Shown here: in pieces, positions 1-46,400 of the stretch | Layout: each line of letters begins with the position of its first letter | How positions within the stretch are numbered: position 1 is the stretch's first letter | Source: Amoebophrya sp. A120 | Taxonomy: Eukaryota; Protista; Dinoflagellata | Direction of reading: 5' to 3' | Assembly: GCA_905178155.1 (NCBI GenBank) | Contig: CAJINV010000009.1 | Location: 2,395,373 to 2,459,372 of the forward strand | DNA length: 64,000 bases | Notes under the pieces: model-generated | Told to the model about the DNA's origin: nothing | Seen by the model: only the letters and a program-made list of their open reading frames with translations | The model's database searches: none | Translations under genes and position numbers: made by a program

Positions 1-1
1 A

Positions 2-130
2 CATGCGGCCGGCACAAGCCTGCGCACGATCATGGCCATGACGGGGCACTGCAGCGTCGATACGCTGCATCGCTATAATGAAGGAGATTTTACATACCAG
101 CGTCTTGCGGCGACAAAGGTGAAATGCTAG
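2..130 (+). CDS. C-terminal end of a tyrosine recombinase (phage integrase/Cre-like); gene starts upstream of the window
   Basis: Frame 2 reads HAAGTSLRTIMAMTGHCSVDTLHRYNEGDFTYQRLAATKVKC*, matching the tyrosine-recombinase box II pattern G.s...I...tGH.s..t..rY with the catalytic His and Tyr; stop TAG at 128-130. Confidence 0.75.
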   Translation, partial: HAAGTSLRTIMAMTGHCSVDTLHRYNEGDFTYQRLAATKVKC

Positions 131-152
131 CACCGAGGCCGACGCGACCCTT

Positions 153-1322
153 TTACTGCGAACCCGCCCTCGACAGCGACGACGACAATGTCGACGGTCG
201 CTGCGGACATGCAAGGCATAACAGATGTGACGCTGCGTGGGCGATCAGTCCACCTTGCTCGTGCGAGGTGGACTAAACGTTCAGTTTCACTTTCACACTC
301 ATGCTGATATATGTGGTAGTATGCAAAACTTTTCAACCGCAAGAACAAGTCCAAGTACAAGCTCGAGCACAACAACAACTACGACTAGATGCACACTTAC
401 AAAGCCAAAATTTAAAAAAATACCTGCTCCATGATTCCTTGCAGTTTTTCACAGAAGGCTGTTTTTAATGTCGTGTTTGCTTCGTTATCTAAACGAATCC
501 ACAACGATAATAACGAAGGAAGTTTCGTCATTAAATCGTTGTGGAAAATGAAGGCCCTGGAGAGATTTTTATTTTTTGTTTTTCATTTGTGAAGAGCTAC
601 ATGCGGATTTGTATGAGAGTAAGTTTGTAAATGTAATTGTATCTCGAGAGAAGGTATTGGTATGATGTCACACGAGACGAATGCAAGCATGAGTGGGTGA
701 AAGTTGAAAATAATAATGGAGAGCATCATGAAGATAAACATAGACATGAGCATGGTTATTGAAGCACAAATTTTAATCACACAATGGCACCTGAATCCGA
801 GTTCCTTCCAGCGATTCTCACCGTGGGACTCGAAGTACATCAATCCGGCTTGCCAACTATGATTGAGGCCGACCACTTCGAAAGCGTCGCCATTGTCCAC
901 GAGGAACATGAATCTCCTCATTACATAATTCCCGCGACACATTTCGCGATATAAAAACTCGCGGTGGCGGGTCGACCTCAGCCGGTTAAACGACGACTCT
1001 TTGATCTTGGGCATCATGCTCTTGCTCACCAGCGCACCGGGCTCGTACTTGTCCGAACGGAAGCGATCGACGAACGTCATCATCTCGTTCTTGGAGACCT
1101 GAAGTTGTAGATTTTTTCTGAAATTACATGAGAAAAATCTGATAAGCATGATGAGTTCTACACTGTTGCATCACGAAAAACACATCCATACAGAAGGGAA
1201 AAAGTACTAATGTATCGCACCTGTCCCTGCTGCCAACGGCCAACGATCATCTTGACTTCCTCCTCAGTCGGCATGTTCAAGGCCTCAGCAAGTTGGCCCT
1301 GAACGGCGGCTCCGAACTGCAT
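153..1322 (-). CDS. Hypothetical 220-aa protein, probably a transposon passenger; exons 1322-1221, 1098-791, 556-424, 272-153
   Basis: Three GT-AG introns join with consistent phases into an open 663-nt frame (MQFGAAVQGQ...SRAGSQ*); it ends 22 nt from the recombinase stop, convergently. Confidence 0.65.
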
Positions 1323-1465
1323 TTTCACACAAACTTCTGAAGAAAACTACGAAGAAACACTGTCGCTCCTACGGAATTTTTGCTGAAATATTGATGATTT
1401 GTCGCTGCGTTTGACATGAAATTCATGGAAAATTGACAGAAATTCACAACCTCCAAAATCCCCGC

Positions 1466-1596
1466 TCTGGAATAATTCAAGGATCTGAGCTCAAAAACCA
1501 TGGCTTTTCATGAAAATTCCAGGAATTCATCATTAATTTTGCGAATATTTGCCAAAAGTGATGGCTTTTGAGCTCAGATCATGGAATTATTCCAGA
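1466..1596. repeat. 36-bp imperfect inverted repeat with a 59-bp spacer
   Basis: tctggaataattcaaggatctgagctcaaaaaccat (1466-1501) pairs with 1561-1596 with 3 mismatches. Confidence 0.8.
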
Positions 1597-2440
1597 ACGA
1601 TGATTTTCGGGATCATGCATTTCAAGCAAAAAATGATGAAAAGCGAAGCAAAAAGTAATGAAGTCGCGCGTAGATTTTTGCTGATCACAGGTTGAAACTT
1701 CATGTATTTGCGTTGTATTTTGCTGGAGGATCTACTGCGAATTCTCTTGGAAATGATGTCTGTTGAGGGGAAAGTTGGCATATGGGGGAACGGTTACAGT
1801 CTCCAGTCGAAGAGTACATGGAAGGGAGCTGGTGTATGGAAATGGATATCGCACAACGAAAATATCAGTGACCGAGTTGCGGAATGGATCGAATACGACC
1901 GAGGACAAAGTGCTTGACTACCTGAAGACGCCTCTTGTATTGCGCGCATTTTCTCACTCATCGCACTTCTCCGCTGCTACGCTTTTTCACTTTCTCCTCA
2001 AAAATACCGCTTGACTTTTGTCAAATTATTTTTTGAAACTAAAGCTCAACGACCCGTCGCAAGCTCAAGTATGTTGCTGTTCGTAGTAGTGCTTGCATCT
2101 CAACCGCGGTGTTGCTACATCTAACACAAAGTGAAAAACTGCAAGCACCGGCGACGCGCATAGCGATGATTTTCTCGCATAAACATAAGATGTGATATGT
2201 AAAAACCATATCAAAAAGCTAAGCACTTATCGCCATGCTGTTAGTGAGTACGTAGCTTTACTGACATGTAGAACGCAGCGGCATGATTGTATTTCTATCT
2301 TGTCGTGAATAAAAAAGTACTGGCGAATCAACGTACTGGTACTGAAGTTGGAGTTGCTCGCTACAGCTATATCACACGAAGGTTATGAACAGAAAAAAAA
2401 TCAGAATCGCTAGTGACCTACAGGCACTTGAGAAGAAAAC

Positions 2441-5400
2441 TCAGGTCGAAACAGACATCTCGTCGTCCGTGCTGCCCTCCGAAGCCGAAGTATCCTCTGC
2501 CATTGTGTCCACTTTTTTGGTCGCGGAGATGTACGGCTTGATGTGGTCAAACGCGGCGTTCTCCATGGCAGGCGTAATCTGTCCCTCGGGGTAGTCGCAG
2601 CCAACAAATTCGCAGACTTTCTTCAGGCACCGCACACGGGCGTTCATCACGGAGTACTTGTCCATGAAGCGTCCGGTGGTGGTACTTCCGCAGGACTTCG
2701 GCTCGAAGATCTCGTCATCCGCATCCTCGTCGGAAGCGAACACATGCCCGTGCCAACAGGCCTGATCCGGGCGGAAGATGCAGTAGACGCGCTTTCCCGC
2801 CAGAGCTGGGCAAACCTGTTTCTCCGGGATGGCGATCGACGGCGTCACGGTAGCCTTCCAGCGCACGTCGCGTTCGTCACGCCTGTGCCCTCCGGGATTC
2901 ACGCGCTCGTCCTTCGCGGAAGGATCAAACTCCAACATCTTCTTCTCGGGCATAATCGTAGACCGCTGGATCTTGGCCTCCACCCAAAGCTCGGGCTTGG
3001 TGACCAAGTATAACTTCCCCTGGATGAAGTAGGTATCGACAACCGACGCTTTGGAGAAGATCAGGTACGACGCCGGGTTCAGCTTTGCGGTCAAGCCGCC
3101 GAGGCGGTTGCACCAGTGCGAGATGGTCACCGATTTGGTGCGGTCCATCGAAAGCTCAAATATCTCTTTCGTCGCGTCGTTCACGAGGCGCTCCGGAAGA
3201 GCCTTCATGGCGGTGTAGTTTTTTCCTTCGAACGGGTTGACAAACATGTTCTCGCCCATTCCGAAGGGGGACGGCTTCATCAACTCCGAAGGTCCGTTTT
3301 CCAGTGCCATCGGCTGCGCCTTCGCTTTAGCCTTCGGAACAGGCTTTACGCAGGACAGAATCTTGCGGGCCGAGGTCGGAACGAAAGTGCACAGCTGGGC
3401 GTGACCCTTCTCGCCGGAGGTCGAGTAAACAAAGTAGACTCCACCACACGCCTGACCAGCAAGTTTCTTCTGGATCAAAATGCCATTGGCAATCTCGTAG
3501 GTCGGAATCAGCGTCGTCTTCATTCCTCCATACCACTTCGGCACAACCGGCGCGCACGGGAAGTAATGGCGCACGATGTCGGGGACCACAAGCGGCGTTT
3601 TTTGGTGGATAAATCCACCGAAAAGCTGCGCCTCGAGCGTGTGCTTGATACTCTTGTTGTCGCGGTAGGCCTGCATGGCGGTGGTCAAGAACGGGTGGTG
3701 GTCGTCGGAGTAGCAATCGAAGTCCAACATCACGCGGCTATCGTTGAGCTTTTTGCGACGGGAGTCGAAGTATGACCTGTTGTTTTTTTTGCAATTGGAA
3801 ATGAGACGAAGCTGAAGGCGTAGCTGTAGCAGTAGATGATTACTTTGACTGCGAAGTGGAAGTAGAAGAGAAACAGGAAGTGCATTTGGTTCACAAAAAA
3901 GTCTGCAGATCAAAATCAAAAAATCCATGCTCGAGTCAAAATCTAAATACATGTTCTTGGTCGAGTTAGCACCTTAGTTTTTTCTATACCGCCACTGCTC
4001 GATCAAGTCGCAGTATTCCGGCCACTCCAGCTTTTCGGAACGCGAAATCTGCGTGCGCAAACCCGCCCGCTCCTGTTTGATGTTGGGGGCGATCCGCTTC
4101 CACTGCTGCCCGGTGGAGTGCAAAGACTCAGTAAACTGAGTACACGGTGTCGACAACGCGTTAAGCGGAAGCAAGACCTCCTGCAAGGCTTCGGAAACGT
4201 CGACGCCATCAGCTTTCAATTTCACCAGCTCCGTCTTGTAAGCCTCGACGAACCAATGCAGAAACTCGTCCCGACACTCGCCTTCCGTTTCCAAAAACAT
4301 TTCCGCCGCAAGCTTGGCATTCCGCGGATCCAACAACCACGTCAAGACCCAAGGGAAGGTCCATAACTGCAACTCCCTCGATGGCAACCGCATGTACAGC
4401 AAAAACGCGAGCTGGAGGGCAGCCACGTCTTCGGGCGCAATAGCGAGGATTCCTGAGAAGAGACGACGGAAATCGGTTGCCTGCGTACCAGTGATGCGGT
4501 GCTTCGCTTGTTCCGCGACCGTAGCGTTCCCGAGAACAACGGTGGAATCGCCGATGGTGCCCAGGTACCGCTCGTGCACGACGCGGAGAACTTTGGTGTA
4601 CGACCCAAGCACCTGCCAGAACACCGGATCCTTTCCCGCTTTCTTAGCTTTGATGAACGTAGCTCTCGTTTCCTTCTTCCTGTTTTTCTCGGCAAGAGAG
4701 AGCAGCTTGATCATCAGCGCCTTCTGGGTGACGTAACAATTCAGCCGCTCGGCACACGGGTAGATCGATAACCAGCGGTGCTGCTGAAATTGCGGAATCT
4801 TCGAGTACAATACATCCAAGCACCACATGTTCCCCGCTTCCGTAATCTTCTGCATTCCTTCGGTGAAGCCGGGGTACAGCGAATTGACGAGATCCTGTAG
4901 ATCACCGACAAGTCGATGCAGTTGATGGGCTTGGCAAAAGAATTGCACTATGTACGTTTCACACAGCCACTGCGTCGCGCCCCGCGCAATCTGTTTTGCG
5001 CGCTCTGCATTGCAGGCCGCCGAGTACACCCGCAGCTTCTTGTACGCTTTCAAAACGTCTGGACCCGCGTCCGAGAGACAACACCAGATGGTGATTGGGT
5101 CTCCTGGGAAATGCCGGGTGTCGCTCCCCGGCAACGGCAGGTAGTTGCCGAGCATCGCATACACCTCGCTCAGAACAGACTTCCAACCGGCCGAACTCTT
5201 CCGCGACTTTGGGATGAAGGGCCGGATGTGGCACTTCAACTTGCCGCTTGCGTCCATGCGCACGTAGCCGATCAGAACGTCCAGGCTCAGCATCCCGTCC
5301 TTCTTAAAAGTAGTGGAATCGGGGGCCATGCGGACCACAACGATCCTGCGCTTCAGTACCGGGTTTTTCTTCGGTCCGATCTTGCAGATCGGGGCAGGGT

Positions 5401-7944
5401 GGGCCTGGCCGGGCTGGAGCGGGTGTCCGGGCGCGTAATTCACGACGAAGAGTGCTTTTCCCGACGAGTCTTTCTGCACGTGGCGCGTGGTCTCCTTGAT
5501 CCGCTGCTCCTTACTACCTGAAAAAAAGTTGAAGATTCAATTTTAAGTTGCAAATTATCTCGAGCGTCATCTCTTTCAACTTTCATATGTGTAGCGAAGC
5601 ACGCGCAAAAGGACAAGCTTCGCTATCGTTTTGCTACAGCTATAGACGTAGAAGAATCGCTACTGTTTTTGTTATTGTGGTTGTGTGCGCTCGCACCACG
5701 TGCTAAAGCGTTTTGTTTGTTTTGGCTACAGCGTTACATATCGCGATGACCACGAAGGCGGGCAGACTGCAAAGCGGTGGCTTCGCTCTGCGGGCCAGTC
5801 AACACGAACGCTCGCTGAGCTTGATGTACGAAACCGAAGTAGTCGTAGTGCAGAAACGAAGTTAAGACAAAGAGAAAGCTCCGTCAAAATGGATATCAAA
5901 AATTGCAACCACAAGAGTCAGTCGCTGTTTCGCTGTTTCTCTTGGCGCTGGTATTGCAAAGCAAAACCACATCTTTGCCAAAGAGCCGTAGGTGGGACTA
6001 GGAGTGCGTGTCAATCTCAGCGCTTATGCCGAATACACGTACACCTACACTCACACACACACACTACTGATAGCATTGGAAGTTGATCTTGCCGTAGCTG
6101 TAGCCACAACCAAAAGTATAAGTATTACTCAAACTCGCTTTCGTACCAAAAATCTCATCCATGTCATTCCGCACATCCATGTCGAGCGCACGACCGTAGT
6201 ACGTCTCCATGCGCTCGCAAAACTGGCGGAGGGCGTGCTTCTTTTGCGCTAGTGACAGCTTAATTTTCTTTTGGTCGTCGCGGTCTTCACGGAAGGTCTT
6301 GTCGTTGTCGAGCTCGAACGACCGCGTGCGCTTGCGGGACGGAGAGTTGCCCACGTACTGCCCCCGCTGGAGCGTCGACGCCACGTCTTCGGGTGAAAAC
6401 AGCGACATCAGCAGCTCCTGTTTTTTCTCGGAGGTTGCCGACGATTTCCCGATGACGTACCCGATGTACATCACCTTCTCCTCCGTCGAATCCAACTTGT
6501 CGAAGACGGACCACTCAATCGCGGTTCGCCACATCTCTGGAACAGAGTTTTCCTTTTTCCTCTTCTCCTGCATGTGGAAAAACTCGTGGTCATCGAAGAC
6601 TCTCCGCAGCGTGTCCTGGGTCTGTTGTGCGAACGTTGCCACGTGAGTCACCTGAAAACAAAATCGAAAATAAATTAAGTGCGTGCGAGTGTGTGCGTTT
6701 TGAATTTCGTTTTGTATTTGTATTCCTATCTGTATTTGTATTTTCTAAGCAGAATAGGTTTGGTTTCAAGCGTAAGCTATGCTAGTGACTTCGCATTTGT
6801 TTTCGTATTCGAGATCAAGGTCGGAGCCTGGACCTGAAAAAAACAGCTGCATGGTCTTTAGTCACAATCATACCAGAGGAAAAATCGCAAGCAACAGTCT
6901 CAGTAGAGATAGGCTAACACAGTCCGCCTGCGATTTGCGAAAGAGTTTCACACCAAGACAATAAGTCTAGGGCGATTGAAGTTGAACGTCGCATCGCGCG
7001 TCATACTGATATCGTGCTGCCATTATCTCTTACGAATTTTTTGTAGGCGTAGAGGATCACATTCACATTCACACTCACAATCACACGCGCGCTCAAATCT
7101 GTTTCGCACTAACATAGGCGCTCACGCTGGAACGCAAGTTAGGCACTTGTAAGCATTGCGGATCATAATCATAATCATTGATTTAGATTTTCATTATCAT
7201 GCACAACTTTGCTTCACATCTACACACACTTTCGCAGTGACTGCGCAAGATCTTTTTTCCACTTCCTCAATCTTGCATAGTCAATTACTAAAAAAAAAAC
7301 CGTACTTCAATCGCATATATTTTCCGCAACATGTGAAGGGCGAACTCCGGCATGTCATCCTTCTCTGCCGCACCTCTTTTTCCTTTTGCCTCAGCAGACG
7401 GGTCCAGCTCGAGGCGCCACTTGGTGTAGTGCTTCTGCAGCTGCTTGTTGGTGGGGCACTGGGTCGGCACGAAGGACTTTTTCTGAAAGTGCGACTCGTC
7501 CTTCACGTGGTTCGGAAAGTCCTCCGCGGCCTGTTCCAGCAGCACCGACACATCGTTGATCGTCTTAGCTTTCAACACCAACCGCAACGACTCGAACTTG
7601 GAGCTTTCGCTGGCGATGAGACGGGGAAAGTCGGCTTCCGGATCTTTCGGCTCATCAAGCGTCGAGGGATCGCGCTCGAAGTTCATGTCGCTCTCCTGCA
7701 TAGCATGCTCGAGGTAAGCCAGGTGGGCCGAACTCCGCAGCTGATTCGAAGGGTGCGGAGCATGCTTGGAAAGTTCGGAGCGAAATTCGTCCATGAAAAC
7801 TTCGGGGTTTTTTTGGAACCGTTGGTTGATCCACGCTTGCACCGAGGGGAAGTGTGGATCCGCAGAACCACCCAACGGAGGGTCAGGGGCATCAGCCGCA
7901 TCTTCTTTTCCAGCCGGAGGCATGGAGTTGGCGAAGGGCTCCAT
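2441..7944 (-). CDS. Large DDE transposase, hAT-like (CxxH class), ~1335 aa; exons 7944-7306, 6651-6147, 5517-3990, 3776-2441
   Basis: Four ORF-track fragments join through phase-compatible GT-AG introns (YAIE|VTH, EIFG|SKE, QWR|SYF; 4008 nt). Motifs in hAT order: CLSDAG (D), FCQAHQLH (CxxH), HRWLS (RW.S), TQFTESLHS (E). Confidence 0.75.
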
Positions 7945-9011
7945 GTATGCCTTTGGTATGGCCGGAGGGTCGAATAATAAATGACTTTCAAGCGAGTATT
8001 TTTATCCCTGCAATAAAGTTTTAGTTGATGTCGAAAGACAAGTAGAAGCGCGAATCATAGATAGTAAATAGAGTTCATTTCGGAATCATTTTGTTTTTGG
8101 TTTTCAATGTTTGTTTTTGCAGCAAATGGAAAACGAAAACAAAAAGCGCACTTCAATAGAAATTAAAAACCGAAAGCGCCGCGGCCGCCGAGTGCGAGCG
8201 GTTGATCATGTTGCATCGCAAAAACATCTGATCCAGAGAAGATCTTTTTCTCCGCCAATAAGTAGCAAAAAGAACTTTTGCGGTTCAAAAAAAACGCAAC
8301 GACGGATCTATCTTCTAGTTGATCTTCGAGCTAAGACCAAGATCTCTTTTTATCCTAAAGATTCATATTCCGCGCATGACTATGTCCGAGCACAATTTTT
8401 AAAAGAAAAAGAGAAAGTGAAGCCGAAGCACAAGTAGAAGTTGGATGCGAAGTCGAAGTGCAAGACGAACTTCTTGGCTTTTCATGAGCAGCTCCTTTCT
8501 GATCTTGCAGCTCTGATCCTTTCTTCTCTCTCATCATCCTCATTTCCAAAACACTTCTTGTTTCAGACATCATCATTTTCACTGCAGTTCTTCCTTCTCT
8601 TACTCCTTGGCGCCCGTTCCGACGTTGGCGCAGGCACTCCACTTCCGCTTACACGATGTCGACGCAGACAGATGATGGCTGTCGGAATAGCCATCGATGT
8701 CCAGAATCGCGCGGCTATCATTGAGCGGTGTGCGAAGTCGAGCTGTTGTTGTTTTTTATTTGCAGATTAAAAAATAGACACCGCGCCCGTAGATGAAGAT
8801 GAAAGCCCAATGATCTATTCACGAAGATAGAGAAGAACATAATCTATTCTCGTGACCACCACCAATTCCTTCGCGACCTACACCTATGAAAGAGAAAAAC
8901 ACATAACCTGGGCGTCGCATCTCCTGCTGCTATCCGCTTGCTTCATCCTTCGCTTTTCACTTTCAGTCCTTCGAAGCTGAAACGCAATGCCACCAAACCT
9001 CGCCTGGTCCT

Positions 9012-9093
9012 CGAATAGTTGTGGTTCTGTAATAAACCACAACTATTCGCGCAGTTAGCCCGGTGAAGCTGACTGCGCGAATAAGTTGTGGTT
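9012..9093. repeat. Overlapping inverted repeats with 8-bp spacers (lox/FRT-like)
   Basis: cgaatagttgtggtt-ctgtaata-aaccacaactattcg (15-8-15, 9012-9049); second IR 9035-9059 / 9068-9093 around ccggtgaa. Confidence 0.85.
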
Positions 9094-9095
9094 TT

Positions 9096-9312
9096 CTTGA
9101 AGGCGAGACTCGGCTTTCTGGAAGGTAATTCGGTTTTTCTGCAAGGTAAATCGGTTTCTACTTGAAGGCAAATCGGTTTCTACTTGAAGGCAAATCGGTT
9201 GCTACTTGAACTCAAATAGCCTCAAGTGTGGTCAATTGCAAAGCTCGGTGTTGCCATATTGCAAAGCTCGGAACATGCAACTTGCAACCAGAAATTCTAT
9301 TGAAATGCTCGG
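9096..9312. repeat. Subterminal direct repeats
   Basis: About 5 copies of a ~22-bp unit cttgaaggcaaatcggtttcta, followed by ttgcaaagctcgg x2-3. Confidence 0.8.
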
Positions 9313-9883
9313 TGTGTCAAGATCAAATTCAAGGTAAAACGAGATCGAGTAGAAACCGTTTTCTTGAAAATAAAACATGGTTTATGGGGGGGCAAATTAT
9401 ATTTTAAGCATTCATATTATACTCCTTCTCTTTTTATTTTCCCTTTCTTTTCGTTTTAGGCCTCTCCTCCTGCCTCACCTTACTGAATTACCATGAGCCA
9501 TGGGTGCAGAGGGATGTATAGTGCATGTCGCGTTGTAATTGTTCTTTGAGAATGACAGCAAATCGAGCCGGTCTTTGCCTTTGCCGGGGAGGCCGTCTAA
9601 TGATATATCATTCGCAGCCTATGCGCGGGATGTTGCCATGCTTTCTTTGCTTTTGCATTTGCTTTAGAGTCTGAGTCTTGAAAAACCATAACATTTTCAC
9701 AAAAAGATGTACATTAACACATACAGGTCGTGGTCAAGTCAATATGGTATATCAATTCATATGCGGGTCGCGGGTAGTAGCTATGGTGGACGCATGTTTT
9801 TCCTTTCGTATTTCTTTATCGCGAATTCAAAAGGTGCATCAAGAATGACTATCATCTCCTTCATTTGATGCTTGCTGATCGTC

Positions 9884-12800
9884 TCACTGCACCTTCCTGG
9901 CTTGCTTCAATCGTTCCTCGAGCAGCTCGTAGTCTCCTTCCAGGTCGGTAATGGTCTTGATATTAAACTGTTTCTGGATACCCAGCATGAGCTCCTTTTC
10001 TCTCCTGTCGACCATGTTCACGGCGATACCCTTCATGCCGAAGCGTCCCGTACGACCGGTTCGGTGCAGGTAAGTTTCCCCGTTGGCTTCTCTATCGCCA
10101 ATCCTGTTGATGTTCAGTGTTTTTCTGGCTTCTCGATACTTTCTTTCTTGCCTTGGTGGCGTCAGTCTCGTTGTTCTCTTTCCTTTGCTATGAAGTTGTA
10201 CCAACTACATATCAACCACCTTTCAACGAGCCCTTTCTTTTCGTATACTCATGTCATCATCATGCAAACAAAATGCTACACTTCATCCAAAAATTGTAAT
10301 ACCTTGATCCCGCAGTCCATATGGTCGGGATTTCGTAGTTCACCACGAGCGTCACCGCCGGCACGTCGATTCCGCGCGCGAGGACGTCGGTAGCCACTAG
10401 AACTTTGGTGATGCCTATCATTTGTAAAAACGTCCCCACACCAGAGTCAAGATGGGGATTCTGCAACACAAACCTTGAAGTTTTGGGAACCACGCATGAC
10501 AAGTTGCAGGCTGTAGTGTAGTACAGGTTAGCAAGGACAGTCGCATGACAAACCCATCTCCTCATCCTGTTTACAGCATTACAAGTGCCAAAACACGATT
10601 GGAAATGCCTCTCATGTAGGTGCGCATTACAAATTTTCCTGTCATTGCAAATCTGCATGACAACTCTGGGGTGGGGACGTTTTTGCTCAGGATAATGCCC
10701 CGCCGAAACTCGTCCATGACTTTGTCGCGGTGTGCGGGATCGATCTTTTCTGGCCCGGTCTGTATCAAATGTAAAAGTGTCTGGGTCTGGAAGGATACAA
10801 CTTGTGATGCTACTTTTGGAATCTACAGAAAAACTGTATTGCATGAACAGCAAAAGAGGTGTGATTTGTGCTACGCGGACAGGGCATTTCTCATGCTGTA
10901 TGAGCGTCAGAAAGCCCTCGCAAAATCTCTGATGCTATGGCATGCATCACAGACCTCATGGATCATGCAAAATCTGCATGACAAACTCCTGCATTCTTCC
11001 AGACCCAGACATTTTTGCAATCCATAGTCTGCTGCGTTCCGCAAATCAGCGACACGGCATACCCGTCCTTTCGCAATCGAACGGAAACTTCGAACCTGTT
11101 AGTAGGGACAATTGTGGGTAGTTTTGGTGCTTTATTATCCTCCCCCGATTTATTTGATCCCTGGTCTATCTTGGCATGTAGAAATTCTCTTCTGTGCGTG
11201 TGTACCTAGCAAGACCAGCACAAAGGAACAAATGGAAATCGAAATAGATGAATAATAATAAACAAAAGCATAAATCAAATATAAATAGATCGTTCTCAGT
11301 ACGCAGTTTTCCTGCTGTTCATGAAGATGATGGACTGCCCAACATTCAAGTGTGCGTATATTTCCTTCAGGGCCTGGTATTTCTCGTCGTTATTTGCACA
11401 CTGCTGGTAAAAGGAGAGAATGGTGTCAATCGCCAAGTCCTTGTTTTGCACCGTGATTTTTGCTGCGTTCGGGACGATGGCCTTCGCGAACTCTCGCACG
11501 TGATCCGGGTATCTGGTGGAGTTGTTTTCTTTTCCCATTGGAGAAGGCCGGCTTCAAAAACGCATTTTCGTGATCTACTTCGGCACGCTAGTAGATCTAG
11601 ACAATGAAACCAACACAAACAAAAATCTCAGGAGAAAACAAATTGAGTAAATACGTGGCGGAGAAGAATAAAACTTGGCAATCTGGTGAGAGCCACTTTC
11701 GGACGGACGCGACGTCGCGGCCCATTTGATTCTCTTGGTCCAACATGACGTCAGCTTCGTCAAGGATGAAAACCTTCACCCGGTCCACGTTCAATATGCG
11801 CTTCTTTGTCACGTCGTAGATCTGTAGTGAATTTTGTGTTTTCGCGAAGTAGCGACTTCTTGCTGACAAACTTGTTCATGCTCACGGGTTTGCCGGAGAA
11901 AAAATAAAAAATCACGTGGTACGACAGCTTTGCTCGGTGACATGTTTTCAACAAAAAATGCGCAACAACGCAAAAATGCGATCTGTACCCGTCCTGGTGT
12001 TCCGACTAGAATGTGTGCTTCGCATTTTCCCTTTTCGATTCTGTCTCCCTGAGGCAGCACCTTGAGGACCTTAATGCCCATGAATTTCCCGAGCTTCATG
12101 ACGACCTCCTCTGTCTGGTTCGCGAGTTCTCGTGTTGGTGCCATCACCATGGCCTGCGGATAGGTGAGCTTGGGATCTATGTTCGCAAGCATTCCCAGTG
12201 AGAAGGTTGCCGTCTTACCGCTTCCATTTGCAGCCTGCCCGATCATGTTCTTCGATTTTGGCGGGCAGATGAGTGGCAGTGCGGCGGCTTGGATCCGTGA
12301 AGGTCGAACGTAGTTCATGCCGTGGATGCCCTCCATTAATTCCCTAGAGTAGTAGAGTTGTCCAGAGTTGTTGAATTCTTTTCCTTTTTTTTCGGTAGCT
12401 TGCTGCGTAGCAGCACGGCGTGAGAGGTTGCACTACGAGGCCATGACGCTCGATCTGCGCAGTTTTCACGTAAGGAGAACCGCCAAAATATTTCATCTAA
12501 TGGAAAAAATGACAATAAGTGTGTCTTTTTACGATGAAGTAAGAAAGTACTTTGTGAGGTTTAGCGAGTCCCAGGATTCCGCAGCGAGCAAGGCCTCGCG
12601 ATAATCAGCGTCAGCCCATTCTACTTGCACTTCGGCAGCCTTTTCGGAGATCAGCCCGCCACGGATGATAGGCGGTCGACCGTCCTCGTCCAGTTGGACT
12701 GGCGGCGCTGGTGCTGGTACTCCGTTCCCGTTGGCTGCAGACGAGGAGGCGCCTTTCTGGCCCACCGGTATTACCTGCACCGGAGGTGCTGCAGCGGGTG

Positions 12801-16980: not shown

Positions 16981-19900
16981 GCCCCGACCACGGCCGACGC
17001 CACTGCGTTCTGCTTCTGCCCGCCTTCCGGCCGCTTGAAATATAAAAGCTGCAACGCTTATGAATTGCAAAAGTATCGCACTCGTAAAAAAGCATGACAA
17101 ATTATTCCCTCAGCATGAGAAGTAAAGTTTGTAATGCGGATTTACCTTGAGAAAAATGCATGATTGCAATTACTACGACTACGATACTTTTGCACAGGAT
17201 AACGCTAGCTGGTGCACCAAAAGCCGGACGATGAACTCGACGGGGCCCAAAATCGGACTATGGGTTGCAGAAGTGTCTGGGTCTGCAAGATTGCGGCCAG
17301 GCTACTTGTCAAGAATATTTTGAATGACCCATGATCTCTGTGATGCATGCCCTAGCATCACAGATTTTTAGAGGCCATTGCGATGCCTCTACAGCCTGAG
17401 AAATGCCCTCTCCGCGTAGCACGAACTGGGGTCCTCTTGCTGCTGGTCATGCATTGCAAATTTTTTTAGCATCCAGAGGCAGCATCACAAGTTTAGAATC
17501 TTCCAGACCCAGACTTTTTTGCATTTGATACGGACAGATCTTCGTCAACACAAAGAAAACGTAAGGAAACACATAATCCACCACGGTGCCATATGGCGCT
17601 CTCAAGCGTCACATTCGCAACTGTTACATGGATTTGTAATGCAAGAACAACAACAGTGAGAGTGGCAACAGTGATTGCAGCTTTCGCATCACAGCTTTTC
17701 CACAGATCATCATGCTGTTTTGCCATGCTAAGCACCTTGATCAAGTGGAGGCTAATGGCAATTTTGCATCACGAATTCATGTAACGTTTGAGAATGTAAC
17801 ATCAGTTGAGAACGCCATATGCCAAGCACCACCTCCGCGACTGTACGAACGGAGGCGAACAGGCTCCGGGCCCCGACGGTTTTCACGTAGTCCATGAAGC
17901 CCTTTGTCTTTCGGGAGATAAAGTCGGTGACGCGGCTTATGCTGTGCAAAAGCATCGTACTAGTACTAGACCATTACGCCGGCGTCCAGGACGCCGGCGA
18001 TAGGTGGCCTAGTAAATCTAAACGCAACTACCAAGCAAACTAACAACAAAGAGGAAAAAACTTGGAGAGCGTTGGGCTGAAGACTCGTCGAAAGAGTCCC
18101 GCTCTTGGGAATCTGCTAGCGGAAACGCGGCCACTATTCGAAGCCCTTCGGGCCGCGGTCTTAGCATGACAAAACGGGCTCCGCTTGCTACTGAAGCCCT
18201 TCACTAGTAGCGGCCCACATTAGTGGGCGCGCGCGCCTTCGCTTCCGGGGCTTCTTCCTAACTAGCTCGCCCCCGCCCGGCCCGGCCGTCGGCCCTGGCC
18301 CGATCCCCCGCTTTTGGGCTTCCTACCCTGATGTCTAGAGAAGGCCTCTCCCCCAGATAAGTAGGTCCCCGGACCCAGATGTCTCCCCGGATATCTCCCC
18401 AGATATTTCCCGCATCCCCAGATATCTCCCCAGATATGTCCCCAGATACCTCCCCAGATATCTCCCCAGATAGATCCCCAGATAGATCCCCAGATATATC
18501 CCCAGATATATCCCCAGATATATCCCCAGATATATCCCCAGATATATCCCCAGATATGCCCCCAGATATATCCCCAGATATCTCCCCAGATATATCCCCA
18601 GATACGGGAAGGGCCGCCCTCTTCATTTTGCATGCCGAGCTTCATCGCCCCCCCTACCCCCCCAAACGGGGCCGGTCTTTGGGGGTAGCCAGAATAGACC
18701 TGCTAAAAACCGGCCGGACCGCCCGCGGGCGTGGAGGACACACCGGCAGGATGTTTGTTCCCCGCGATGCCTTTTTTTTTCTTACGCGCGCTCCCTTAGA
18801 AGCTTCCTTTAAGGGCTCCCTTAAGGGAAGTTTCTAAATTCCCTTTTTTCTAGAATTCATTTTCTAAGGGCGCCCCTATAATCTATAAGGGCGAAAAATC
18901 CGAGTAAAAATTCTATAGTGTTATTTTATAAATCGCATGACAAATTGCCTCAGCATGAGAACCAAAATTTGTATATGCAGATTTAACTTCAGAAAGAAAT
19001 TTGTAACGCATGAATGCGATTAGTACAACGAGTACGATATTACTTTTGCACAGGATACGGCTTGTGGCGACACGAAACTTTTCGAGCGCGTCGTTGAAGT
19101 TTCGCTGCATGTGGCCAATGGGATTGCGAAACCATGAGAATGGGCCGCGGCTCTTGACGACAATTTCTCCACTTCCAGTAGTCCGCGATATCCTGTGTAA
19201 AAACGTCCCCACACCAGAGTCAAGATGGGGAATCTGCTAGACAAATCAGCCAGCTTTGCCTTTGCTTGTTTGGCATGACAAGTTTGTCCGCGTAGTGTGA
19301 TCCTGTTTAGCTAGTTAAGAAGCATCACAGATCTAGCATAGAATGCTGATTCTAGCATCACAAGTTCCAAAACACGAACAGAAAACGCTCTGCATAGGGC
19401 TCCGCATGAGAAACTTTTTTGGCATGCGGAATTGCATGACAACTATGGCGTGGGGACGTTTTTACTCAGAATACACGACGACCCATCTTCATCGTCTCCG
19501 GCCCGGTGCTTCAACAGTATGGAAGCGCCAGGTTATTTGAAATCGACAGAGTTGAAATAAGTAATTTGTCATGCATAAAATGGATACCAGTTGGAAGACC
19601 AAGCTCCAAGCGGAGCATGACAAATTTTCGGAGCACCGAAATCCAATTTGTCATGCTGTTTGGGCACAGATGAAGAGTGCTTTTGTCATGCTCCTTTAGC
19701 AGCTCGATCCCAAAGCCTAAATAGGCTCACAATCTGCCTCACTTGCCATCCCGGCAAGACAGGCACTTCATGCCTTGCATTTTATGCATGACAAACCATT
19801 TCAACTTTGACGATTTCAATCCTGTTCCTGACACTTCCATAAACAGTTCGGCCTCCGTACTCGCGATGACGCCGTGTTCGGTCCCGTGCCCCTCTTCCCG

Positions 19901-43400: not shown

Positions 43401-46400
43401 GTACGTGGATTTGTGATGCGACAGCCACATATGTGCCATTGCTTGTGATGCCGGTTATGCTATACAAATGAGAGGGAGGGGGAGTTGGGCAGTCTCATAA
43501 GCTGATGCCGCCGAACACCAGCATTTCGTTCGTGTGGTTATCCCAAACCGCAGAATGGTACGCCATCTTCGCCGGACGTATTCCCTCGAACGTGTTGTCT
43601 AGGCGTTGCCACTTCCGATCGCGGGGGTCTCTCTCCACATCGTACGTCCACAGATCCTATCAAATGCAAATATGTCTGGGTCTGGAAGGATGCAAAGTTT
43701 GTTATGCACATTCTGCATGGTTCCTGACGTCTCGTCTGTGATGCATGCCCTAGCATCACAGACTTTGTGAGGGCTTTCTGATGCCTATACCGCATGAGGA
43801 ATGCCCTCTCGCCGTGGCAAAAATCGGACCTCTTTATTTTCTGTTCATGCAATACTGATTTTTGTAGTATGCAAATGCAGCATCACAAGTTGCAATCTTC
43901 CAGACCCCGACATTTTTGCATTTGATAGATCCCCCAGCGGCTCGTCCTGTAACTGCCCGCCGAAAATATCCAATGCAAAAGTATCGCACTCGTAGTATTA
44001 ATTGCAATCATGCATTACAAATCTCCATACCAAGGTAAAACAGCATGACAAATTCCATTTGTCATGCAAAGGCAATTTGTAATGCAATTGCTATCTATTA
44101 TATTCATGCGAAAAAAGAGGTCTACAGAGGGTCGAAGAGAGGTGGCCGAGAGGTAAAAAAGAGGTCGACAGAGGTCAAAAAGAGGTCGACAGAGGTGGAG
44201 AGGTGGCGCGGGAGGTCATTCGAGAGGGTGGCCGAGAGGGTGCGCGAGTATAGCCCGCCGAAGGACTCGCCCTAAAGCCGCGCCTATGGGGCCCGGAGGT
44301 GGCCGAGAGGGTCCCGAGAGGGTAAGCGAGAGGGGGACAGAGGTGCCGAGAGGTTGCGCGAATAAGGGCGAACCTCCCGCGCACCCTCTGGGCCACCTCT
44401 CGGCCACCTCTGTAGACCTCTACCGGCGAGTATAGCCGGATTATTAGCAACACCTCTCGGGAGAGGTGAAAGAGAGGGTCTGCGAGAGGGGTAAAAGAAG
44501 CCGAATCCGCCCGGCACAGGGTCGATTCTTTTGGGGCTTTTTCATGCGTCGGCCCGCACCCTCTCGCGCCACCCTCTCGCGCCACCCTCTCGCGCACCCT
44601 CTCGCGCACCCTCTCGCGCACCCTCTCGCGCCACCCTCTCGCGCCACCCTCTCGCGCCACCCTCTCGCGCCATCCTCTCGCGCCACCCCCGCGCCCACAG
44701 CTTCCGCCAGGGAATCAGATGGGCGGGCGCGGGAGAGTGATCAACAAAGCAAGGGCAGCGCGGTCCCCGTTCTGCTTCGGCACCTACGTCGCGGCGGCTT
44801 CTCTTCGCCCCCAAGCTTCGCTGCAGTTGCTCCCTGCGCATAGCGCCTAAAGGCGCGGGAAGCGCGCAGGGGCCCCTGCGGGTTGACATGGCGCAAGCCG
44901 GCGGCAGTACTTCCCTCGGCCTGTCACGCTGCCCCCAAAGCTCTTATGTCGCGGTCCGATCCGCAAATAGTCACACCCCAGCACAACAGCCGTGCGCTCC
45001 GGCGTCAGCCGGAGCATGGCTGGTTACTACTAGTGCGATGCTTTTGCAATTCATAGAAAAGAATCATCTGCGAATCTTGCAGCTGCCCCGGTTCCCAGGC
45101 CACCTGGCGTCGGACCACCATGGAGTGCCCCTTCCGCGCCTTGGGCCGCTCGTAGGTGCCCTCTTTGTAGTAGTGCTTGGTCCAGAGATTCACGCCCGGG
45201 TCGTAAATCCACGTGTCGTCGTAGTAGTAGCGATTCCGCTCGAACTCCGGGTCGATCGTCTCAAACGCGTAATCGCGCCGCACCGCCGAGGCGTTCTGTT
45301 TATTGATTTATGATTTCAAATCACTGCTATGGCTTGTTCTGCATTACACAGCTAATTTGGCATCCAACTATCTGCATGAGAAATTGTTCCTCTCAAAATT
45401 TCTATATGTGCCGTACCCTTGTGTAATTCTCCCCGGTGAATTCCGGTAATGGATACAAATAGCTCCACTCCGTGCTAAAACCCGCGAACAGCATCAGCGG
45501 TGAGTTGTCCCCCCGGAAGAAGACCATCTGACTGTCCCCCCTTCCCTTCGGCGTCCTTCCCCCCTCCAGCCTTTTCTTCTTCAGAGCCCCACACGCGATT
45601 TGCTTGATCTCGCACAGTATGCATCGCAAAAATATCCTCTGGCTCTGGGTCTGGAAGGATGCAAGGTTTGTCATGCTTGTCTGGCATGACTGCAGAGTTT
45701 GTGATGCGTGTCCAAGAGTACACGCTTTTGCTTGTCATGCAAGACGCAGTTTGTCATGCGGAAAGCGCAACACTAAGCAGCGCAAATGCTTCGCGTGCTT
45801 GGCTGTGCATTACAGAGAGGTCACTATTCGCAACTCAGCATAACAAGTTTCCAGACCCAGACATATTTGCATTTGATACACAGTTGTCCGGTGACGGACG
45901 TGGGGGAGATGTTTTCGTCCACCGCGGGGTCGTACAAGCTGGCGTCGAGAATTTGCGGGTTAATTTCGTTATTGTAGTCAATGGCGAGCCTGGTGACGGA
46001 CTTTATCCCCGAAGGATCCAGATCCTCCCACATATCCGTGTACACCCGGTACCGGAACAGCGTGGTTTCCCACCGGCCAATGCCCTGCCCGCCGAACACG
46101 AACAGAAACTGGTTGTCGAAACTGGCCACCATGGAATGCCGAAACCGACCGCAGTACTCCCCTGGTGGGCAGAGTTTCGTCGCTTTGGACCGGAGGAACC
46201 ACCTGATTACATTGGATTTTTTCGCGCCCAGCTGCAGCTGTAGTCGTGTAGCTTCACAAAGCTCAAGTTGTGTAAATGGTAATATTACCACTAGCACGAC
46301 CAGTCAAAGCATTTACAGATTTGGATGAGAAATCGACGGAAAAATCTATCATACTGATTGCCCTGTTGCCACGCCCGGGCCGGAAACTGCGGGTAGTAGG

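Follow-up and report, generated by a model that had tools for sequence, protein, structure and literature searches.

Analysis of a 64,000-nt stretch of the Amoebophrya sp. A120 genome (GCA_905178155.1, contig CAJINV010000009.1, positions 2,395,373 to 2,459,372 of the forward strand; hereafter the window, with positions counted from its first base) led to a composite DNA transposon, the right-hand 9.4 kb of which occupy the left end of the window. Contigs of DNA reads indicate a length of 12,955 bp or more for this element, which is real and recently duplicated. It bears a gene for a strongly diverged hAT-like DDE transposase, a companion gene (open reading frame 2, ORF2) and, at the left edge of the window, what is likely the C-terminus of a tyrosine recombinase. 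Our judgment leans moderately towards a single composite element, likely moved in a cut-and-paste manner by its Hermes-like transposase and carrying its own tyrosine recombinase, which likely acts on two palindromic sites.

The transposase gene is located on the reverse strand at 2441–7944. Its four exons (7944–7306, 6651–6147, 5517–3990 and 3776–2441) are separated by three GT-AG introns and, with a single stop, encode a predicted protein of 1335 amino acids (aa), in agreement with a preliminary description of this DNA made from its letters alone. The D, CxxH, RW and E motifs reported there were placed at codons 5320 (D448), 5071 (D531), 4936 (C576), 4927 (H579), 4777 (R629, followed by W630) and 4129 (E845), and they are kept in most of the 13 relatives predicted in Amoebophrya AT5.2 (D448 in 10, D531 in 11, C576 in 11, H579 in 12, R629 in 13, W630 in 12 and E845 in 11). 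A search of 1.84 billion representatives with exon 3 returned 17 matches; P0013 and P0016 were left out, the latter for its excessive length, and 14 of the 15 examined either are or cluster with proteins of Amoebophrya AT5.2 or A25. P0013, a candidate relative, was dropped as a bacterial adhesin repeat protein. Full-length relatives align to exons 2, 3 and 4 at 23–31% identity, which supports the splice model at the level of sequence comparison. Thirteen AT5.2 models, an A25 fragment and the present element make up this transposase family, which is invisible to Pfam. Residues ~1090–1325 are also conserved in most full-length relatives and correspond to no known domain. Concerning its class, an AlphaFold model of exon 3 (14-sequence alignment, mean pLDDT 70.9) was compared with known structures. 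All nine Foldseek matches at E ≤ 0.001 were Hermes (Hermes E-value = 2.8e-5), while a wide structural search placed Hermes first (Z 16.3, rmsd 5.7, 343 aligned), followed by the P element (Z 8.0) and then by unrelated rows. The predicted fold, an RNase H-like DDE core that contains a large helical insertion, is in line with the hAT-like class proposed previously.

The extent of the element was studied in two DNA runs of one sample (X1 and X2) and in contigs from a second study (X8). A single X1 contig of 7313 nt covers positions -3539 to 3774, comprising the recombinase tail, ORF2 and part of the transposase gene; as it runs 3539 nt to the left of the window, the minimum length of the element is 12,955 bp, and the duplicated unit includes the recombinase tail. 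Depth over the block is 36–40 against 23–32 on host contigs in X1, and 72–78 against 41–47 in X2, and the window differs from X1 contigs at 20 of 3774 and 16 of 5193 bases. Roughly twice the host depth with so few differences indicates about two copies that are 99.6% identical, so that the multiplicity raised in the preliminary description is borne out by contig depth. At all 16 differences from the X1 contig in 3849–9041 the window letter is A, mostly A against C; probably two copies were collapsed by the assembly with ambiguity codes written as A, in which case a few transposase residues may be wrong. At 3775–3848, a piece of intron 3, contigs from X1 and X2 both break and depth rises, meaning that this piece recurs elsewhere in the genome. 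Inside the element X8 has a few short contigs only (depth 3–4), and the raw RNA run X4, with zero reads on the block and on host exons alike, is uninformative on expression.

The structure of the ends was derived from the layout of the X2 contigs, of which 8 of 14 records are listed. The right end is at 9416, not at 9401 as first proposed, and is formed by an imperfect terminal inverted repeat (TIR) of ~405 bp (9012–9416), whose terminus starts with TATGA and which is perfect over 42 bp. Specifically, 9012–9177 shows 1 difference between two paths, 9168–9404 exists in two versions with ~85% identity (the exact one at depth 101, the other, with 29 substitutions and 6 gaps, at depth 86), and 9375–9416 is a common 42-base piece, identical at both ends, at depth 187. 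The subterminal repeats noticed earlier were recovered by a repeat search as two arrays, 22 bp × 4.5 at 9121–9217 and 23 bp × 2 at 9226–9271. Copies of a 14-bp motif at 9235–9248 and 9258–9271 are free of all differences to the other end, and the arrays are likely binding sites of the transposase. Past 9416 there are two exits; one is the host gene and starts with TTATACTC, and the other starts with the reverse complement of it, as expected of an inverted left end and an 8-bp target site duplication (TTATACTC, 9417–9424, forward strand). The duplication falls in the 3′ region of a host gene which, from its motifs, we take to be a DEAD-box helicase of the DDX19/Dbp5-like type. It was seen at one insertion site, the left flank coming from contig loose ends, and an X8 contig presents the same flank as X2. 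The left TIR and target duplication that the preliminary description placed beyond the window are therefore represented by the second TIR version and the 8-bp duplication in contigs, not joined to the recombinase in one piece; from these we infer the position of the left end and a second palindrome at its inner TIR edge.

Two further points concern the ends. Kolobok elements have a TTAA duplication and RR...YY ends. A Kolobok reading was rejected here; TTAA occurs at 9404–9407, but all ends share 9 further bases to 9416, followed by the 8-bp repeat. Additionally, in an X8 contig at 9396–9424, the host 3′ region and the left flank are connected by only ~12 + 20 bases of the element ends, with both 8-bp repeats kept. 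This is a possible excision footprint, although a single contig with 29 letters on its short side may be an artefact. Splicing of the whole element out of a host mRNA is an unlikely origin of that contig, given 13 kb and no GT-AG.

The inner edge of the TIR harbors a feature that the preliminary description lacked, a candidate recombinase site recognized by its sequence. It is a perfect 15-8-15 palindrome at 9012–9049, with arms CGAATAGTTGTGGTT and an asymmetric 8-bp spacer. This is the longest palindrome of the 64-kb window (the longest arm in 200 simulated sequences was 12), and its first base, 9012, is the inner TIR edge, exactly where both ends become alike. The recombinase sites described in the available part of PMC3212892 have 11–13-bp inverted arms and a 6–8-bp spacer; the spacer here falls within that plan and the arms are 2 bp longer. 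The same arms are found with other flanks in two further X2 sequence families (depth 262 and ~79). In runs X2 and X7, over 9011–9049, one arm-sharing family stands at ~six single-copy depths and has one mismatch and an adjacent GCTCGGTGT motif which also occurs in this TIR, and a second has an altered spacer; they are likely sister or non-autonomous elements. The palindrome would be the site bound by a tyrosine recombinase.

Such a recombinase is likely encoded at 2–130 on the forward strand, where the open frame 2–127 with its stop at 128–130 ends in GHCSVDTLHRY, as had been reported. The 42 codons and stop correspond to a C-terminus with box II and H...Y, and the rest of the gene, with the first R and the HxxR motif, would lie left of the window. 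Pfam Phage_integrase was matched at profile positions 143–168 of 172 (E-value = 0.14) and PHROG integrases in two of three rows (E-values = 0.094 and 0.24). The first ESM Atlas match scored 0.98, and the sole Pfam-labelled cluster among 30 was Phage_integrase, on 11% of its members. NCBIfam and PDB gave no match to the 42-residue tail, and a search for longer proteins with this tail found no full-length relative. The matches are weak but consistent, and the frame is likely an integrase C-terminal box.

ORF2 is located between the two, on the reverse strand at 424–1322 (exons 1322–1221, 1098–791 and 556–424), and either ends at a stop at 412–414, giving 184 aa, or continues into a further exon through a donor at 423. 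Its residues 10–181 match the C-terminal parts of fused AT5.2 models (P0019, E-value = 6e-27; P0003, E-value = 4e-10; P0005, weakly), P0022 is matched by each of the three exons, and there is a match to the N-terminus of g8337, whose number adjoins that of the transposase g8336. It is established directly downstream of the transposase in 4 of the 13 AT5.2 relatives, the other nine being covered by one word-based search only. These comparisons support ORF2 as a conserved companion belonging to the element. The 220 aa given to it in the preliminary description are arithmetically possible, with a stop at 153–155, but homology covers residues 10–181 only and the presumed last exon (272–153, reverse strand) is unsupported, with no homology and a negative codon score in all six frames of 131–271; the distance of 22 nt from its stop to that of the recombinase frame, given in the same description, is accordingly doubtful. 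ESM Atlas offered ParB_N (0.93; 19% of cluster members; 137 of 256 features) and DUF3723 (0.93) as leads, while Pfam, PHROG and PDB gave no ParB match for ORF2, and a ParB-like N-terminal domain is a lead only.

Taken together, the 8-bp duplication and the Hermes fold point to transposase-driven cut-and-paste integration, in which the transposase would bind the subterminal arrays, cut at the TATG ends and integrate with an 8-bp stagger. The recombinase would not integrate the element. With the two sites in inverted orientation, its action within one copy would turn the interior around, and recombination between two copies, or between sister chromatids, would take fused products apart. This resolving role appears to be the most likely purpose of the recombinase, a suggestion that we make tentatively and at less than even confidence. 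ORF2 would act as an accessory DNA-handling protein.

Several observations weigh against a single element with its own recombinase. The window displays 42 recombinase residues, no match to them passes a curated threshold, and codon usage does not favour the frame (-0.14 bits per codon, against -0.07 for the in-register antisense frame). A recombinase linked to a relative of the transposase in another strain was not found in viral contigs and two metagenome scans. ORF2 is ~725 aa long in P0022, extending ~570 residues past the point where the window has its splice donor, so ORF2 may be interrupted here, with the recombinase lying within it. The palindrome could be bound by ORF2 or the transposase instead, and the left end and the recombinase were not recovered on a common contig. 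Finally, the depth of 187 at the common 42-base piece amounts to ~4 ends, yet two exits are seen among the records listed (depth 47 for the one leading to the helicase gene and ~148 for that leading to the left flank). With ~3/4 of the ends on one flank, the fit to two independent insertions or transposition events is poor. A 3:1 exit pattern with equal TIR variants is exactly what an end-swapped flank-element-flank derivative would give; inflated contig depth and filtered records are an alternative source. The unity of the three genes, as claimed in the preliminary description, hence stands in part. ORF2 is linked to the transposase in relatives, and the recombinase tail shares a ~2-copy contig with both, in a unit with TIRs and an 8-bp duplication, whereas a recombinase beside the relatives elsewhere was not found.

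Part of this evidence could be accommodated by a two-gene hAT-like element with a distinct recombinase element, of Crypton or DIRS type, nested in ORF2 or immediately behind it, the insertion being older than the duplication of the locus; we consider this unlikely but worth serious attention. ORF2 here is either short or interrupted, and this keeps such a history alive. Its counterparts in P0022 and P0005 are much longer, a GT donor occurs at the corresponding point of the window, and the 3.5 kb to the left could hold both the recombinase and the remainder of ORF2. None of 14 AT5.2 models contains a recombinase motif either, though a gene on the opposite strand would not be fused into them. 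However, a nested insertion would not account for a site of recombinase style that lies at the TIR edge and is retained in several families, no boundary repeat of an insert was found in 131–423, and depth on the interior contigs does not change stepwise around position 1, so the insert would have no other copies. It is highly improbable that the 42-codon frame arose by chance or lies antisense to an additional ORF2 exon, leaving a hAT-like transposon with one accessory gene. The in-register minus frame 244–2 is indeed open, with an acceptor at 232, the E-values are weak and the search for longer proteins was empty, but three libraries agree on the family at the expected C-terminal position and the minus frames are unlike the ORF2 tails of relatives.

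A replicative mode for one element, with the recombinase resolving the cointegrate as proposed for Tec, had been suggested in the preliminary description and appears doubtful now; we regard it as very unlikely. Directly repeated copies would offer sites at which a cointegrate could be resolved, and two near-identical copies do exist. Nevertheless, hAT enzymes of the Hermes type cleave both strands, with hairpins forming on the flanks of the donor, and because of these double-strand breaks transposition through a cointegrate is less likely. There are, moreover, two inverted sites and not one internal res site. The X8 junction contig, which may be an artefact, looks as it would after excision and aborted gap repair.

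Concerning known systems, hAT elements have short TIRs starting with (C/T)A(A/G)NG, and an N-terminal BED zinc finger is common among them. The element resembles Hermes and Ac in the predicted fold, the D-D-CxxH-RW-E order, the 8-bp duplication and the subterminal arrays. It differs in the length of the transposase (1335 aa, with ~490 residues past the catalytic E), in its ~405-bp TIRs with an inner palindrome and in its two extra genes. The end starts with TATGA, outside the hAT consensus, no CxxC indicative of a BED finger occurs within the first 440 residues, and Pfam returned nothing relevant and no hAT domain for the exons and the relatives, whose sequences are very diverged. The transposase is thus best described, on its model, as hAT-like rather than as a hAT member, given its TIR start and the missing BED finger. 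Duplications of 8 bp are usual for hAT, and groups with 5–7 bp exist, according to the consulted part of PMC12730594.

The arrangement also recalls systems of other classes. It shares with the yeast 2-micron FLP/FRT system a recombinase, two long inverted repeats with arm-8 bp-arm sites (the left one inferred here) and possibly a partition-type protein. In yeast, each of the two long inverted repeats of 2-micron contains one such FRT site for FLP. The 2-micron is a plasmid without a transposase, unlike this element, which is known here as integrated DNA. Cryptons are likewise eukaryotic DNA elements with a tyrosine recombinase, but in the portion of PMC3212892 at hand they have no TIRs and 4–6-bp terminal direct repeats, whereas the present element, taken as a whole, is bounded by long TIRs and an 8-bp duplication. 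A parallel architecture is that of ciliate Tec1/Tec2 and of Paramecium Sardine and Thon, also from alveolates, where the accessible sections of PMC3464196 and PMC5405496 describe a DDE transposase, a tyrosine recombinase, extra open reading frames and long palindrome-bearing TIRs, the TIR of Sardine being 425 bp. In those elements the enzymes are of the IS630/Tc1 type, D and E are spaced by 32 residues and the target is TA; in the present element, D531 and E845 are 314 residues apart and the duplication is 8 bp. With a differing transposase and target, the pairing would be independent. MarCry-1_FO, a Mariner-Crypton fusion of Fusarium, is similar in that a DDE enzyme transposes the element and the recombinase is carried inside. 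It has a mariner enzyme, 16-bp TIRs and a TA duplication, and a recombinase site in its TIRs is unmentioned in the same portion of PMC3212892. The preliminary description had rightly named Tec among the precedents, yet its list was incomplete, as a DDE enzyme occurs together with a recombinase in Sardine, Thon and MarCry-1 too. All of these belong to IS630/Tc1/mariner, as far as the passages seen of PMC3212892, PMC3464196, PMC5405496 and PMC13465315 go. A full-text literature search, which excluded subscription journals and Repbase, found no case of a hAT-class transposase with a tyrosine recombinase, nor is such an element mentioned in the available part of PMC6431247.

Apart from its genes and ends, the block contains an imperfect 92-bp inverted repeat at 1439–1623, in the gap separating the transposase stop from the ORF2 start (74% complementary; z -2.8 on 150 of 185 nt), and an Rfam search of 1–9500 gave no match. 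Self-comparison revealed a decayed internal duplicate (8673–8779, 73%) of 3696–3807, which covers the beginning of exon 4 and its acceptor. Upstream of the transposase, a lysine-rich open frame of 121 codons on the forward strand (8072–8437) has no Pfam match and is probably no gene.

Finally, the block was compared with the introners of the window. TAT...ATA introner candidates number 42 in 9420–64000, all with 5-bp direct repeats, and 0 in 1–9416, where three weak matches of another kind with 4-bp repeats were found. The preliminary description was therefore correct that the block lacks introners. Of the host genes with which it contrasted the block, the adjacent helicase gene has three verified GT-AG introns besides its introners. 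Across the block contig depth stays even, and it rises sharply to 10^4–10^5 over the introners at 10121–11440. Tandem arrays of 12 bp and 13 bp at 18374–18604 and 44557–44695 probably lie inside introner-type elements, and apparent introners with 8-bp duplications were rejected as tandem-array artefacts. The ends of the introners agree with the published Amoebophrya A120 pattern, as far as presented in the part of PMC7789003 consulted. A TATG start, the same as that of the element end, is found in 39 of the 84 introner ends of the window, all 84 having been chosen for TAT. Past TAT(G), the likeness of the TIR to introner ends does not exceed background (9/10, reached by 121 of 600 random TAT 20-mers). 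That same part of PMC7789003 lists two putative transposases in A25 and none in A120, and on this basis general mobilisation of introners by a transposase was ruled out. In PMC12130899 some A120 introners are attributed to TIR elements, with the superfamily unknown in 2 of the 118 Amoebophrya places of its supplement that were covered. Given 8-bp duplications here against 5-bp ones at introners, only a sister family could be the mobiliser, and we put forward the hypothesis that a sister transposase family mobilises Amoebophrya introners. A bolder reading, quite unlikely in our estimation, is a plasmid-like transposon, in which a hAT-type integrase would be combined with an FLP/FRT-like module (inverted sites, recombinase, ParB-like protein) amplifying or stabilising an excised copy before reintegration, and whose transposase family, with TAT-starting ends, would include the missing mobiliser of the introners.

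A hAT-like transposase with a recombinase would represent the Tec/Sardine-type architecture with a different transposase class, for a pairing so far described for IS630/Tc1/mariner only. If true, an independent pairing with a strict cut-and-paste enzyme challenges the usual reading of such recombinases as cointegrate resolvases, and the sharply defined candidate site makes the role of the recombinase directly testable. For Amoebophrya itself, the existence of a diverse, Pfam-invisible transposase family may bear on the unexplained mobility of its introners.

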